DNA of 63,831 nucleotides, filler included, from Globobulimina sp. (lineage: Eukaryota): assembly GCA_003354225.1 (NCBI GenBank). It is 37 parts of 37 records of this genome, joined end to end, with 100 filler letters (N's around TTAATTAATTAA, not from the genome) between each part and the next. Parts side by side here need not be neighbours in the genome. Positions count along the whole stretch, not along the records: positions 24,202 to 25,829 come from PIVH01013905.1; 36 more parts are not named here. One strand, 5' to 3'. The translations under genes were made by a program, and so were the position numbers. A model generated the notes under the pieces. It saw only the letters and a program-made list of their open reading frames with translations. It ran no database searches and was not told where the DNA came from. Positions 24,102 to 59,153 of this stretch are shown here, in pieces (the stretch's first letter is position 1; the number at the start of each line of letters is the position of its first letter).

Positions 24102-24481
24102 NNNNNNNNNNNNNNNNNNNNNNNNNNNNNNNNNNNNNNNNNNNNTTAATTAATTAANNNNNNNNNNNNNNNNNNNNNNNNNNNNNNNNNNNNNNNNNNN
24201 NGTTCAACCAAACAAATAATCTTATCCCAAATAATAATACAATTCAGGAATTATCCATATCGTAAAATAAACAATAATCAAACCTAAAATAACTAATTAT
24301 AGTCCAGATCGTAATTCATATTCAATCCTCAATACTATCTTTTGTTAATTGTTCCTGGTAATCTTTGAAGAACTGTAACGATAATACCTTCGATTTATCA
24401 TTCGGCACATTCTTCACCAAGTCACATTCCGTCAAATCTAAATCTATCATTTCTCTGTTTATTTTATTACCATACAAATAG

Positions 24482-25314
24482 ATAACAGATGACTATGTTG
24501 TTAATTTCGGAGAATTAACCAGTGCAAAAATCCAATTAGTATGTTCAGATAATAACGTAAAGGGATTTGGATGGGATGTAGAACCATTTAATAACAATCA
24601 AGTCCCATTTTTTCGACAGTTATCTTCAATGATAAAGGCATGTAACAAGAAATGGGGCGTGTTTGCGTTTCCAAATGGCTTTTGTGTGGGGTGAGCTCTG
24701 TCTGCTTTTTTGTCTGTGGTGTGGGGTGTGTTCTGGCGTCAAAAAGTGATTACACATATGTTCGAGTCAACCAATCAGAAAAAAATTATTTTTAGAGTTT
24801 AGGTTAGACGACACACACAAAAGCAGACAGAGCCCACCCCACAGATTTCAATACTGATATGTGGGCTGCATTTGGAGGATCTGGATTTGTCATCGATTCT
24901 TCATATGATCTATCAACGCCATGTCAATGTGTTGAACCAAATGCATATGAAACATTGTTAAGTAATCAATTGGTTGCCTTGAAAGCAAATGCAGCCGAAT
25001 ATAATGTCGATTATCAAATATTATTAAGCGGCAGTGGTTCAACCACAATATATACTCAATACACCGGAGGTAATTCATGTTTAGGTGGTGGACATGTTTA
25101 TAATTATACGTGTCCGTATAAAATGGAAGAATGGATGCAATCTGCGGTCAATGCCATGGATAATGTCACTGTTAAAACTGACGCTCATTTTATTGGTATT
25201 GGTATTTATGATTATACGGATACAAACAATGGTGGCTTCCAACCTGCTCTGCCACCATCACAATCACTAAATTTGCTCAAAAGCAGTGGGTATTGGAATG
25301 ATTCTAATGTGTAG
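24482..25314 (+). CDS. Hypothetical glycoside-hydrolase-like protein, 3' exons 24482-24683 and 24845-25314
   Basis: VKGFGWDVEPF resembles the GH18-type DxE strand; FIGIGIY near the C-terminus. The exons join in frame across intron 24684-24844. Confidence 0.5.
24684..24844 (+). mobile_element. TIR-bounded 161-nt intron (introner/MITE-like)
   Basis: G-TGTGGGGTGAGCTCTGTCTGCTTTT ... AAAAGCAGACAGAGCCCACCCCACA-G: 24/25 inverted match, extending to about 33 nt with three mismatches. GT and AG sit at the exact ends. Confidence 0.75.
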
Positions 25315-25534
25315 TACTTGTTTTGTAATATTATTTCAATTATTAAACTGAAAAACTTAAGTTTTCCCTGTGTTCACTACTCGAGGATTGTTGTCAGTGA
25401 TAATCAAGATTCCAAAGCTTAAAAAACTCCCAACAAAGCAAGAGCATAAATAATGTATGCATATGAATATTTGGAAATGTGGGCCGATGATACGGATACC
25501 CAAAGAGTAAGTATACCGGTCAAAACAAAACACA

Positions 25535-25810
25535 GTGTTTTGTTAATTGTTTTATGTTGTTTTATAATTTGTTTTTTATTGTTTTACAAAAGTTTTGTAT
25601 TGTTTTCTGATGTGTTTTCAAACTGTTTTGTATTGTTTTACAATATGTTTTATGGTGTTTTATAAATTGTTTTATGGTGTTTTATAATGTGTTTTATGGT
25701 GTTTTATAACTTGTTTTATGTTGTTTTATATTGTGTTTTATTGCGTTTTATAATGTGTTTTGTGCAGTTTTACAAATGTTTTATTGTGTTTTGCTTTTTG
25801 TTTTGCAATT
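25535..25810. repeat. Degenerate TGTTTTAT-type low-complexity tandem repeat
   Basis: Many imperfect 9-11-nt units such as TGTTTTATA and GGTGTTTTATAA. Confidence 0.85.
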
Positions 25811-25929
25811 TGCAGTTAATTCAAGACAANNNNNNNNNNNNNNNNNNNNNNNNNNNNNNNNNNNNNNNNNNNNTTAATTAATTAANNNNNNNNNNNNNNN
25901 NNNNNNNNNNNNNNNNNNNNNNNNNNNNN

Positions 25930-26295: not shown

Positions 26296-27448
26296 TCAAA
26301 AAGTGATGTGTTGACCTATCTGGAAAAGCGACAGTTGACCAAGTTTATGCAAAGTGTATTGAACGACGCTATCGATGCCACAACATCGCCAGTCAATCTT
26401 TGTAACATCCATCTCCAATAAGCTGCCTATAAAATCCATGCCTGATCTACCCAATTTATCTGACATCGATTTGGGAAACCAAGCACCATATCCTCTCTGT
26501 GCATAATTTGCAACATAAAAACAGAATATATACAAAAAAAACAGACTTTAACAGTGGAATTAAATCCCTTCAACACGTTTTTAAAGATTTCCTTTGCTTC
26601 ATTGACGCCGTAATATGTACCTGGTGGGACATGAAAAGGTGGAAAGCCAAATATCATCACAAATGCGATAACACCAACCGACCACATATCAGCTGAATGA
26701 CAGTAATCACCGGTTATCACTTCAGGTGCAATAAAATATGGAGTGCCACATAACGTATTCAAGCTTTTCAGCGGTTGGCATATTTGACTCATTCCAAAAT
26801 CAATGATCTGAATATCAGACTCTTTATCGTCACTAACAAATAATATATTTTCCGGCTTGAGATCTCCGTGAAATATTCTATGCTTTGCGTGCATATAAAA
26901 CAACGCCTCGCAAATCATTCGAATCACTCGTTTTGTGTCGTGTTGCTGATAGCCATTTTTCTCTTTGGTTCTAGCAAATAACTCGCCGCCTTTACATTCT
27001 TCCATTACAATATGTAATTCGTGCTTACTTTCATATGTTCATGCAGATTGACGATATATTTATGTTTTAACCGCCGCATTATATCTATCTCCGCCTCCAT
27101 TCTGCTTAACATTTTCTTTCTAATTTTATGTGAAGGATCCAATCTATATATCTTTGCTTTGGATATCTCTTTGACTGCAAATATTTTGCCATCGCATTTT
27201 CTTTGACATTGAAAGGCGGTGCCAAAAGATCCTGGCTTTCCTATTTGTTTCAGTTTAGTGTAATGTGCAGAGAAATGAGTGTCTGGATATTGCTCGGTGA
27301 TCCAGACTGTGCGTAAACGATTCATTGTGGGTTGTTTTGATTTCGCAGTGTTGTAGTCTTCATTTTGTTTTAATTCTGTTTTCTCGCCTTTTTTGTACTC
27401 TGCATTTGTTGTATCGTTTGTGTCACAGTCTGATATTTCTGAACCCAT
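26296..27448 (-). pseudogene. CAMK/CDPK-like Ser/Thr kinase with two frameshifts (about 27038 and 26397); intron 26497-26546
   Basis: GKPGSFG, AVKEI, HGDLKPEN, DFG, CGTPYFIAPE, DMWSVG. One base is missing in HE(T)YESK and two in TK(R)LT. Sequencing error cannot be excluded. Confidence 0.75.
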
Positions 27449-27657
27449 GTTTGATATTAGCTCACTTGACTAAAAATAGAAAACTTGTCAAAGTGCATGG
27501 CAGAAACAAAGTATTTTACAGGTAGCAAACGGGGAGCAATTCGAGAATTGCAAGACANNNNNNNNNNNNNNNNNNNNNNNNNNNNNNNNNNNNNNNNNNN
27601 NTTAATTAATTAANNNNNNNNNNNNNNNNNNNNNNNNNNNNNNNNNNNNNNNNNNNN

Positions 27658-31113: not shown

Positions 31114-32741
31114 CTGATCATATGCTTGTTTAGCCCTTTCATAAGCAATGGTCGTTCGAGCATGTTCGGCAATGGGGGCATGTCCTTTCAACCATACATT
31201 CCATTTATTTTGATCTTTTATGAATCCATTTGGTTTTATTACTCCGCCTGGTGTATATTCACTTCGGCCTGAAGTTGCAGCTCGTGGAGTTTTCGAGGCC
31301 ACTGGAGCAGATTCAGTTTCTGATTTCTTATCTGTTTTTATTGGTTTAGTTTCAGCAACGAAGAGTGCATTCATGTCTGCATCATTGGCCATCATCTCTG
31401 CTTTAGTGGCATCTGCATACATTAGTTGAATGGTCACATTTGGCAGTTGAGGCATAAGGCGCATGTAAGCTCTGACTCTTGGTTTTAATCCTTGCTTGAA
31501 AGTGTGAATGAGGAATGGATTACTCACTTCCGCTGCTCCATTTGGCCAACACTTGGTAAGAGTAGATTCAAATCTTCGTACATATTCTTGAACTGTGTCA
31601 GTTCCCTGTTTCAATGTGGTAAGTTCTTCTATTCTTTCTGCTGGTGTCCGTTGATCTGCATATCGTAAGATTAGCAGTCTTTTGGTTCGGTCATAATTCT
31701 CTAAATCATAGTCTGGTTGACCTTGAATAATAGTCAGGCATTCGGCAGGAATTTTGGTTGACAAAAATGCGATTTTTGTGATGTCATCTTCCACATGCAG
31801 ATATCTGCACATAAGTTCAAATATGAATAGCCATTGCTTGATATCATCTTTGGCTGGATTAAATTCCTTGACCAGTTGTTCGCATTTTAACCAGCTTGGT
31901 GTTTGACCATCATTTTCATCATTCAGTAATCTGGTTAAATGTTGTCCAAAATCATTCAGAGCTAGTGCCAGGACTTGAGCCAGATTATTGTAGCATTTAT
32001 TTGGATCAACTCCTCCATCTCCCTGTTGATTGGTGTTTGGTGGGGGTCCATTTCCATTTCTACTGGGCTGGTGACCGTAAGGTCCACCAGGCGGCCCTCC
32101 TCTGGGTGGTCTTCGACTTTGTGTGTAAGTTTCTTCAAGTAGACATGAACCTTGTGGTTGTTGTAAAACTGGTGTTTCTTGTTCAAGCACATTTTGAACC
32201 AGGGTTTGTTGCTGATCAGCTTCATGATCACGATTGTTTTGCACGAGTTCCTCTTGATAACGTTGATTTACCTCCGCCAGATGATTTTCCTTATATGAGG
32301 CGGTTTGCAATTCGTCTTGACTCGTTTTAAGTTGAGCTCGAAGTCGATCGACTTCACTTAAGGCTTCTCGTCGCATTTCAGTCATGCTATTTTCGTGACA
32401 TTCTTTTTGGACCATTCGGTGTTGACGACTTCGAGTCCTTTCGGCATCCAATTCGGCCTGTTGATCGTCGGCGGCTCCTTTTTGGGCTTCAAGCCATTGT
32501 TCTCGGTCAATTCTCCATTCCTTCTCGTGTTGAGCTTGAAGTTGACGACGAGCTGTTAGGGTTGCTTCTTCGATCAAGCGAGCTAATTTAGCTTCTTCAG
32601 CTTTTAATTTGTCACTGATTTCTTGTCGAACTGTTTGATATCGACGTTTCCAACCCTCTAGCTGTTGATGTAGTTGAGTCACTTCACCATCTTTTCTTCC
32701 GACTTCCTCCTGATTTTCTCGATATAAGTTTCGATAAGTTT
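31114..32741 (-). mobile_element. Ty3/gypsy-like LTR retrotransposon Gag (coiled coil plus capsid domain), open across the whole contig
   Basis: EFNPAKDDIKQWLFIFE...KIAFL...LILRY...LKQGTDTVQEYVRRFE (major homology region)...FKQGL; intronless and GC-richer than host genes. Confidence 0.85.
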
Positions 32742-39840: not shown

Positions 39841-41234
39841 ATGCACGAAAAACAACCACCAACTAAAATAGAAGAGAAACAAGAAATAAATTACGGTACG
39901 AAAGCCATCGACAAAGTCAACGCAAACATCAAAGCCAAGCGTCGTTTCTATTCATTTGAATTTTACCCCCCACGAACCGCCAAAGGGGTGGCAAATTTGC
40001 AGAAATCCATCACCAATATGGTCTCTTGGAAGCCACAATGGATGGATGTCACATGGGGTGCTGGTGGGACTACTTCCGACCTAACCCCTGAAATTTGTAA
40101 TTACATTCAAAACACAGCCAATGGCAATTGTATGATGCACTTAACGTGCACCAATATGGTGCCTGAGAAGGTTGACATTGCCTTACAACAAGCAAAAGTT
40201 TAGTGTTTATTGTTTAAATTCTGATTCCTATGATTTATATCCTCGCACTCTCCATATATTGTTATCAGGCCATGGGTTTTAAGAATATCTTAGCTTTGCG
40301 AGGTGACCCACCCAAAGGACAAGAAAAATGGACCGCCATTGAAGGTGGCTTTGAATGCGCATTGGATTTAATTAAATATATTAAGAAACAGTACGGCGAT
40401 TATTTTGGGATCACAGTGAGTGGCTATCCCGAGGGACATCCGGTTGTTCGCAAAATCATCACTGATAAAGGTTGGGATGCTCAGAAAAATGAAAATCCAA
40501 AATATTACGCTGTGCACGAATTAGAGGATGGCAGTTTTGAAGGTGTCTCGCCTGAGGATTGGGTGAATGAATTGGATTACTTACAAAAGAAAGTCGATGC
40601 GGGCGGACAGGTTATTATCACTCAGTTATTTTACGACGCACAGTTATTTATTGAGTGGGTGAAGGCTGTGCGTGCGCATGGCATCACTGCTCCTATTTTA
40701 CCAGGTTTGTTGCGGTGACATGACCGGCATTTACTTAGTAAAGTTTTTTTAGAGTGAAGTAAAGTGAAAATGTGTTTTTTTTTTGTTTCAGGTATTATGC
40801 CGATTAGAAATCATGGGTCGTTTGGCAGAATGACTGGTTTTTGTAAGACTGTGATACCAAAAGATTTGAAGGCAACGTTACTAAAATTGAAGGATAATGT
40901 TGATGAATTATATGAATTTGGTATGGATTATTTGCATAAAATGTGTACGGAAGTGCTATCTGCAAAGGATAAAGATGGCAATTTTTTAGTTCCCGGACTA
41001 CATTTTTATACTATGAATACAGAGAAATGTACGATTGAAATTGTGGCCAAATGTAAAATTGGATGTGAAGATAAAGGGTTTGAAGCACATTTAAATAATG
41101 AATTAAAGCGGGTGTTGAATGAAGCGAAACTGAAAAAAGAAGAGAAAAAAAGAAAGGAGGAAGAGAAAACCAAAGCGGTTACAAAAGCAGCGCCAATTCA
41201 ACAGGGGGAATTTAATGAAGTTAATAGCTTTTAA
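39841..41234 (+). CDS. MTHFR: Methylenetetrahydrofolate reductase, catalytic domain only; introns 40198-40268 and 40705-40791
   Basis: SFEFYPPRT, VTWGAGG, MHLTCTN, NILALRGDPP, GYPEGHP, KVDAG..IITQLFYD, PGIMPI, GLHFYTMN. Confidence 0.96.
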
Positions 41235-50015: not shown

Positions 50016-50122
50016 NNNNNNNNNNNNNNNNNNNNNNNNNNNNNNNNNNNNNNNNNNNNTTAATTAATTAANNNNNNNNNNNNNNNNNNNNNNNNNNNNN
50101 NNNNNNNNNNNNNNNAGTCGTA

Positions 50123-50351
50123 CAGAGGTGTTCCCGATAAGAACTACGCATATTATTACTCATACATATATATTAGTTTTAATCATATGGTGGACCTGTC
50201 AAGGGATCATACATGATCATATATATATTATATGATAATATATATAGTATTATATGATCATATATTATCCCTTGACAAGTCCACCATATGATTAAAACTA
50301 ATATATATATATGAGTAATAATATGCGTAGTTCTTATCGGGAACACCTCTG
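50123..50351. mobile_element. Complete 229-nt Tc1/mariner-type MITE with ~95-nt TIRs and TA target-site duplication
   Basis: TA|CAGAGGTGTTCCCGATAAGAACTACGC ... GCGTAGTTCTTATCGGGAACACCTCTG|TA; few arm mismatches; TA-rich core. Confidence 0.9.
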
Positions 50352-50672
50352 TATGTGTTAATTATGTTTGATTGGTGCAAGTAATTGTTGGTTCTCGTCG
50401 ATGTGGTCGAGTTGGATCTTGCCGGCGTGTCGAGGTGGATCTCATTGGCATGGTCGATGATTGATTGAATTTATTTAATTTGTTAATTTATTCAATTTGC
50501 TTGGGCGCCCCGAAACTTTAAAAAGTGAATATAAGAATATAAAATAAATTAAATGACCATCACAACACATGTACAAAGTTTAGCAAATCAATTAACGAAA
50601 CAAGACCTTGATAATAAGGGCTTTCTTTGAAAGCATGAGAAAAATAAATTATTCAGATTAATGTATACAAAA

Positions 50673-58750: not shown

Positions 58751-59153
58751 AATACATTTAATATAATATTTTGCACAATTTTATAGTATTCAGATTGGTG
58801 GTTTATACATTGTTTTGTGTCATTTGTTGCTAATATTATTCATATAGCATTACTTTCCAATCATGTTTCGTTGTTTTGCTGTGTTTGATTTGTTTTCCTG
58901 GACTGACATCTCCCATTCTCAACCGCTACCAAGATGTTTAACTTTGACTGAAAACCTTACATTGAAAAACAACATTTTATGGCAAATTGCAACACCTAAA
59001 CACACAACAAATATTTACAAACACGCAAAACAACGAAATATGATTGGAAAGTAATGCTATATGAATAATATTAGCAACAAATGACACAAAACAATGTATA
59101 AACCACCAATCTGAATACTATAAAATTGTGCAATATATTATATTAAATGTATT
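58751..59153. repeat. Long inverted repeat with ~135-nt arms (58751-58887 / about 59020-59153), foldback-like, left arm cut by the contig start
   Basis: Arms are reverse complements with about three differences, around a ~130-nt spacer. Confidence 0.92.

Follow-up and report, generated by a model that had tools for sequence, protein, structure and literature searches.

Introners, i.e., DNA transposons that generate introns, occur in Micromonas, Aureococcus, dinoflagellates and further lineages (Gozashti et al. 2022, PMC9860276; reviewed in PMC11282704). The published families include some that have inverted repeats without target duplication and some that add codons, and the share of GC donors ranges over 0-50% (PMC9860276). 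In other lineages, the nonconventional introns of euglenids and the MITE-derived non-canonical introns of Fritillaria borealis have ends that pair, by which the junctions are drawn together (available text of PMC11282704). Within the literature searched, and the supplementary species tables of two large surveys aside, no report of introners in Foraminifera was found. Rhizaria and foraminifers are not mentioned in the main texts of the two surveys, in their available portions (PMC9860276; PMC12130899), and a 2026 rhizarian genome paper gives, in the part available, no introner signal in its species (PMC13746701).

The locus described here is a 167-nt element in a coding sequence of Globobulimina sp. 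It resembles introners in being short, non-coding and multi-copy, in having terminal inverted repeats (TIRs), in interrupting coding sequence and having GY...AG at its ends or close to them, and in being present or absent according to haplotype. Inverted repeats without target duplication, GC donors and codons added to the message are likewise features of some introner families (PMC9860276, available text). It differs from introners in that some copies outrun the ends of this copy, the copies appear to number tens and not to reach the hundreds or thousands, the other 36 contigs analysed yield no further copy, and the element is known here as a DNA insertion. Two of four introner features were found, i.e., a multi-copy family and a recent gain with an empty site. 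With MITEs and foldback elements it shares a length below 200 nt, inverted-repeat ends, a strong hairpin and insertion polymorphism, and its arms appear to be built of units as in foldback elements; however, its target-site duplication is at most 1 nt, its two ends differ, the left one alone carrying an 8-nt tail, and it could be assigned to no superfamily or autonomous partner. Its ends pair as do those of the euglenid and F. borealis introns, and in the alternative register of the join they are non-canonical (GG..CA), as the ends of those introns are (PMC11282704). In those lineages, however, excision from RNA has been shown, whereas here the joined form is also present in apparent DNA.

The window, i.e., the whole stretch of DNA that was analysed (63,831 nt, filler included; assembly GCA_003354225.1), consists of 37 contigs of 1627-1629 nt each, sorted by length and separated by spacers of the form N44-TTAATTAATTAA-N44, and features count as neighbours only within one contig. 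The element and its host gene are on the contig at 24202-25829. For the empty-site comparison, Logan contigs with at least 80% likeness to this contig were taken from four public runs, X1 (organism A), X2 (organism B, from a separate study), and X6 and X7 (further organisms from the study of X2). Logan contigs lose rare variants, so that the filled form could still occur in X1 and X2, and summed contig depth is not equal to copy number. The features of the host gene and the element are as follows.

24202..24488, plus strand: 3' part of the upstream intron, at least 287 nt, with acceptor AG at 24487-88; traversed by X1 record 4 and skipped by X2
24489..24676, plus strand: coding exon upstream of the insert (NDYVVNFGEL...WGVFAFPN), from tblastn with P0001 and P0002 and from the X2 join at 24489
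24535..24536, plus strand: 24-nt gap relative to X1 and X2 (8 codons, SFANATAS by hand), where P0001 and P0034 have AFANATAS
24677..24843, plus strand: inserted element, 167 nt, from the joint of 24676 to 24844 in X1 and X2 contigs and from homologues that read FPNDFN across the site
24677..24684, plus strand: 5' tail GGCTTTTG outside the stem, 8 nt, unpaired in the fold; CTTTTG also precedes the arm elsewhere
24685..24720, plus strand: left TIR arm, 36 nt, from an inverted-repeat search
24808..24843, plus strand: right TIR arm, 36 nt, from the same search
24844..25314, plus strand: coding sequence downstream of the insert (DFNTDMW...WNDSNV, stop at 25312-14), from the open reading frame and tblastn

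The insert was composed of a 159-nt core bounded by the repeat and the 8-nt left tail GGCTTTTG, in which the GC at 24678-79 could serve as a donor and the G at 24684 opens a GT donor. Its register is ambiguous by 1 nt (G), and 24678-24844, which starts with GC and ends with AG, is equally valid. The preliminary description had reported a TIR element of 159-161 nt at this place and had regarded the G of its GT donor as a flanking host base. The inverted repeat was confirmed, with arms at 24685-24720 and 24808-24843 that are 89% complementary and separated by 87 nt; the left-arm 25-mer has a single further match, in reverse orientation and with 1 mismatch, and two matches were obtained in none of 100 shuffles. 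The boundary, however, had to be redrawn on the left by 6-8 nt, as the joint in X1 and X2 places this G inside an insert of 167 nt that starts at 24677/24678 and not at 24685. The ends are accordingly asymmetric, as the stem reaches exactly to the right one but stops 8 nt short of the left one. The GC content of the element was 0.44 and that of the arms 0.50 and 0.56, compared with 0.33 for the contig.

In the RNA fold of 24677-24844 the free energy was -65.2 kcal/mol, compared with -42.7 ± 4.2 for shuffles (z -5.3), and none of 200 shuffles was equally stable. The first 8 nt were unpaired, and the stem set the GC-bearing tail beside the acceptor. Matches in Rfam were limited to miRNA hairpin families and were far below threshold, at 26 bits versus gathering scores of 140-180; a miRNA identity was rejected as generic hairpin likeness.

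The fixed-length target-site duplication of a canonical MITE was not found, as at most 1 nt (G) is shared when the filled and empty forms are compared. The 8 nt to the left of the arms (GGCTTTTG) and the 8 nt to the right (GATTTCAA) match by eye at 3 of 8 positions. An imperfect target-site duplication GCTTT/GATTT was considered and rejected, because CTTTTG precedes the arm in another copy and therefore belongs to the element.

The multi-copy nature of the element within one genome was evident from the summed depth and from loose ends in other contexts, which bears out the earlier view of a dispersed-repeat copy with terminal inverted repeats that interrupts coding sequence. In X1 the summed depth over the element was 109, 232, 316 and 273 in four bins versus 9.16 on exons, i.e., 12-35x, which is not a copy number; in X2 it was 74-169 versus 25-28 on the flanking exons, a 3-6x excess to be read in the same way. 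In our reading the family comprises tens of copies and not hundreds to thousands. Most of the other copies in X1 and X2 have T at 24771, judged by depth. Past 24843, at least four X1 contigs (agreement 0.98) and at least three X2 contigs run into CAAAAG and then into a further arm-like unit; among the loose ends listed, one X1 contig has a further arm unit ahead of CTTTTG upstream of 24679. The ends of this copy are therefore not common to all copies, and the shared ends G/TGTGGGG...CCCCACA/G that had been expected of the family differ in several of them. Other copies appear to be longer, their arms consisting of a ~28-nt unit (core TGTGGGGTG.GCTCTGTCTGC.TTTTG) in several repeats, which would be the architecture of foldback elements and some MITEs. 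A second partial copy of the core, TGTGGGGTG, was present at 24720-24735 beside the left arm, and extra units outside the two ends (24679 and 24843) were seen on contigs that cover other copies in part.

In the other 36 contigs of the window (~59 kb), BLAST, pattern search and all-against-all BLAST yielded no second copy of the element, the two arms of the element itself being the only matches; the repeat of the upstream intron was likewise absent from them by all-against-all BLAST. The arm pattern had no match in metagenome contigs and none in viral contigs. One contig of X7 (organism D) aligns with 38 nt of the left arm (24681-24718) with 7 differences and with both flanks different, which could be due to chance or to a distant relative of the arm unit.

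The site of the element is empty in other data, which come from this organism or a sister one. Record 4 of X1 (817 nt) covers 24329-24676 and then continues directly with 24844-25259, the shorter side being 255 nt, and the same joint of 24676 to 24844 ('skips 167', both=1) occurs in X2 records 10 and 11. The joined form reads FPN-D-FNTDMW. An empty form of the kind to which the preliminary description had pointed as a check thus exists in both X1 and X2. X6 and X7 contributed short pieces of low identity, none of which spans the insertion site.

Homologues of the host protein, which belongs to a small, uncharacterised family matched by both exons, agree with the empty form. The nearest named relatives, with 82% and 64% identity over exon 2, come from the foraminifer Bolivina argentea (two EukProt proteins), so that the organism of the window is probably a foraminifer as well. 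FP[NK]DF is read by P0001, P0002, P0033, P0034 and P0026, and the closest homologues have exactly FAFPNDFN. The span of the W...MW motif was the 15 residues of the empty form in 14 of the 16 homologues fetched, 16 residues in one and 13 in another, and P0034 and P0033 (contigs of 1423 and 831 nt) run uninterrupted over the insertion site. A recent gain is indicated by the empty site in X1 and X2 together with this uninterrupted spacing; an ordinary ancestral intron at the same position, in relatives or in all alleles, was not encountered, X1 and X2 being empty and P0034 and P0033 continuous. Pfam has no family for the host exons or for seven homologues, and a protein atlas gave a lead only, to GH18/EndoS-like TIM barrels (score 0.92). 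The search for related loci of the host family produced 227 pattern matches, none of which was confirmed.

The type of run is recorded for neither X1 nor X2 and has to be judged from the contigs themselves. X1 record 4 passes unbroken and unbranched through the acceptor at 24488/89 and includes 160 nt of the upstream intron, which X2 contigs splice out; its depth of 9.16 is flat, with 4.2-9.1 in neighbouring non-coding pieces, and X1 also includes a record of 98 kb. On these grounds we infer that X1 is DNA. X2 contigs, in contrast, exit at 24489, directly behind the AG at 24487-88, into an upstream exon WDGRIGTAA (hand translation) that matches P0001 (NWDGRIGTAKNDYVV); their cover is 3-5 on the putative upstream intron versus 25 on exons, and it ends ~50 nt past the stop codon, so that X2 is probably RNA-like. 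If X1 is DNA, as its continuity through the upstream intron suggests, the joined form represents an empty site and is not proof of splicing.

The part of the upstream intron on this contig is itself a repeat. Positions 24202-24485 belong to a second dispersed repeat, which X1 records 1-3 match with 12-39 differences before they diverge. This repeat stops 3 nt short of the acceptor (AG, 24487-88), and the 5' end of the intron is off the contig. The upstream intron may be a second intron derived from a repeat.

The haplotype that carries the element differs from X1 and X2 in other respects as well. It has the 24-nt deletion at 24535..24536, where Bolivina carries AFANATAS, and 11 extra nt at 25308-25318 across the stop codon. 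X1 and X2 have G at 24527 and A at 24637; by codons read by hand, the insertion haplotype has K at 24527 for the E of Bolivina. Both indels leave the protein readable, as the 24-nt one is in frame and the 11-nt one regenerates a stop. Because X1 and X2 share these indels and SNPs, they represent another haplotype than that of the insertion carrier. Judged against Bolivina, the insertion haplotype is probably the derived one and the odd one out. The loss of eight conserved codons and the change of a conserved E to K look like relaxed constraint.

In our view a MITE-like or foldback-like element entered an exon recently, is polymorphic there and is a candidate nascent introner, and we put the probability that it marks a gene-interrupting allele or a recent gene copy, rather than an established intron, at roughly one in two. 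A copy of ~167 nt of a non-autonomous inverted-repeat family would have been inserted as DNA between the N and D codons of FAFPN/DFNTDMW, with the haplotype of the contig analysed filled and the haplotypes of the two other data sets empty. The interruption might be tolerated through intact copies or paralogues. That the event was a gain, and that it affects the gene, we infer. The reading as a gene-interrupting allele is preferred because read-through of the insert gives FPNGFCVG and then a stop at 24692-94, four codons in. On the other hand, the two other indels of the haplotype, which keep the protein readable, would fit a gene still in use, and exact ends, such as the possible GC...AG reading gives, are what would be expected of an intron-making element or of a reverse-spliced intron; given an AG end, the chance of a GY start is estimated at ~1 in 10. 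The absence of a target-site duplication and the asymmetric ends are unusual for cut-and-paste insertion. Possible mechanisms include a duplication-free transposase, the uptake of part of a repeat when a break was repaired, and insertion of a spliced-out intron. If the element is not spliced, it would be an ordinary transposon knock-out allele, informative mainly in that this organism would have a short hairpin element that is active.

A tentative alternative is that the element is already a nascent introner, i.e., that it was inserted and is removed by the spliceosome in carriers, either through GC24678...AG24844 (giving FPNDFN) or through GT24684...AG24844 (giving FPNGFYFN, with two added residues). 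In favour of this, the register 24678-24844 starts with GC and ends with AG, and its exact removal restores the ancestral message; the fold leaves the tail with the GC donor unpaired and the stem places it by the acceptor; and the insertion haplotype is open-framed on both sides. The published families with inverted repeats, GC donors and added codons provide precedents (PMC9860276, available text). Three introns elsewhere in the window are supported by homology and could be compared.

40198-40268: MTHFR intron, 71 nt, GTTTAG...CAG, from homology
40705-40791: MTHFR intron, 87 nt, GTTTGT...CAG, from homology
26546-26497, minus strand: kinase intron, 50 nt, GTCTGT...CAG, from homology

The acceptor of the element, CACAG/A, resembles these local ones, as all three end with CAG, and the upstream intron of the host gene ends with ACAG. 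The local donors (GTTTAG, GTTTGT and GTCTGT) are weak and T-rich, and GCTTTTGT and GTGTGG are not far off. The local donor signal is unlike GTRAGT, though three introns are too small a sample for a consensus. A tally of donor hexamers over every GT..AG pair that bridges open reading frames was dropped as too noisy. The element had also been described as longer and richer in GC than the other introns; this holds against these three (50, 71 and 87 nt) and for its GC content relative to the contig, but the other introns modelled in that description were on unrelated contigs.

Several results stand against splicing in carriers. The only RNA-like run, X2, has the haplotype that is empty in the DNA-like X1, with the same states of the 24-nt and 11-nt indels, and its message comes most simply from an allele that never held the element. 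The GT at 24684-85 and the AG at 24843-44, from which the preliminary description had derived an in-frame product FPNGF-Y-FNTDMW, are present, but they carry little weight, as 18 GY..AG pairs around the element are open-framed and a frame-keeping pair is expected by chance; moreover, the stem buries one base of each splice site, T at the GT donor and A at the acceptor. The junction 24683/24845 that this model predicts is absent from all contigs of the four runs (X1, X2, X6 and X7), and the 17-residue span that follows from its two added residues occurs in none of the 16 homologues. If the observed joint 24676/24844 were a splice, it would correspond to GC24678..AG24844, and a GC donor at 24678 was among the outcomes that had been named as contradicting the model. 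The copies that extend past 24843, in at least four X1 and at least three X2 contigs, show that the ends are not shared family ends, and no further copy is found in the ~59 kb of the other 36 contigs. An introner family is thus a testable candidate rather than a finding.

Somewhat more doubtful is the specific form in which this would be a newly gained foraminiferal intron, polymorphic for presence and absence, with the 167-nt GC...AG hairpin excised exactly to give FPNDFN, the tail presenting the donor and the 36-bp stem setting it by the acceptor. If such exact GC-AG removal were true, it would constitute, within the literature searched, the first introner family in Rhizaria, and the different repeat of the upstream intron, 3 nt from its acceptor, would hint at frequent introns of repeat origin in this lineage. 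If carriers do splice the element out, the locus would offer a rare view of the birth of an intron, with the empty allele still segregating, in Foraminifera and Rhizaria, for which genome data are poor.

The insertion could also be a fragment of the repeat that was copied as filler DNA into a double-strand break during end joining, without transposition, which we regard as unlikely. The lack of a target-site duplication and a junction with microhomology of only 1 nt (G) would suit such an origin, as would a left end that lies within the repeat unit (tail GGCTTTTG) and a right end at a unit boundary, with other copies longer on both sides. However, the insert stops on the right exactly where the inverted repeat does and on the left only 8 nt beyond it, and a random fragment would rarely be so neat; inverted-repeat families without target duplication are in any case known (PMC9860276, available text).

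It is a little less likely that the element has gone to fixation and that the joined forms of X1 and X2 are both spliced RNA, which would make it an established transposon-made GC-AG intron, with X1 retaining the upstream intron. The joint does equal GC24678..AG24844, neither run has a recorded library type, and X2 is RNA-like in skipping the upstream intron and in its cover, which ends ~50 nt after the stop. X1 record 4, however, crosses 24488/89 unbroken at a depth as flat and low as that of its non-coding neighbours, the 98-kb record is in the same run, and the 24-nt and 11-nt indels and shared SNPs identify X1 and X2 as the other haplotype and not as a transcript of the carrier.

Slightly less probable again is that the filled state is ancestral, and that an old transposon-derived intron was precisely lost from the haplotype of X1 and X2 through recombination with a reverse-transcribed spliced message. 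Intron loss mediated by reverse transcription has a 3' bias, and here the joined form is exact and the 3' intron is gone while the 5' intron is kept, which fits that bias. Against such a loss, the insertion haplotype is the derived one elsewhere (E to K and deletion of AFANATAS, relative to Bolivina), and the contigs of P0034 and P0033 (1423 and 831 nt) are uninterrupted, hence free of the intron if those contigs are DNA.

Finally, the assembly is highly fragmented, long palindromes stand at the start of two other contigs and a 2-nt frame break was seen by eye in the kinase gene, but an artefact of assembly or amplification is highly improbable, as two chimeric joins would have had to fall on neighbouring bases of the gene and leave the host sequence intact, and the element was found in two independent studies (X1 and X2).

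Some further observations were made in the window. The frame break of the protein-kinase gene is at 27020-27045 on the minus strand, in ...IVNLHE/YESKHELHIVMEEC, and by eye seems to consist of 2 extra bases and not of an intron. The Pfam domain Pkinase was assigned to the open reading frames at 27008-27469 and 26430-27038, and the frame shift could represent either an assembly error or a pseudogene. The two palindromes at contig starts are at 58751-59153 and 50121-50353, with arms of 129 nt at 98% and 103 nt at 96%, and may be foldback elements or inverted chimeras produced by amplification or assembly; a weaker palindrome is present in the contig at 5188-6816 (contig positions 1050-1247). On the contig of the element, the 3' end (25467-25829) consists of short repeats similar to TGTTTTAT/TGTTTTAC, for which the summed depth in X1 reaches 644 versus 9 on the gene, and is satellite-like. 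At 31114-32739 on the minus strand, an open reading frame of 542 amino acids fills the contig and has a retrotransposon gag domain (Pfam PF03732, E 2.6e-9), which indicates that retroelements are present in this genome.
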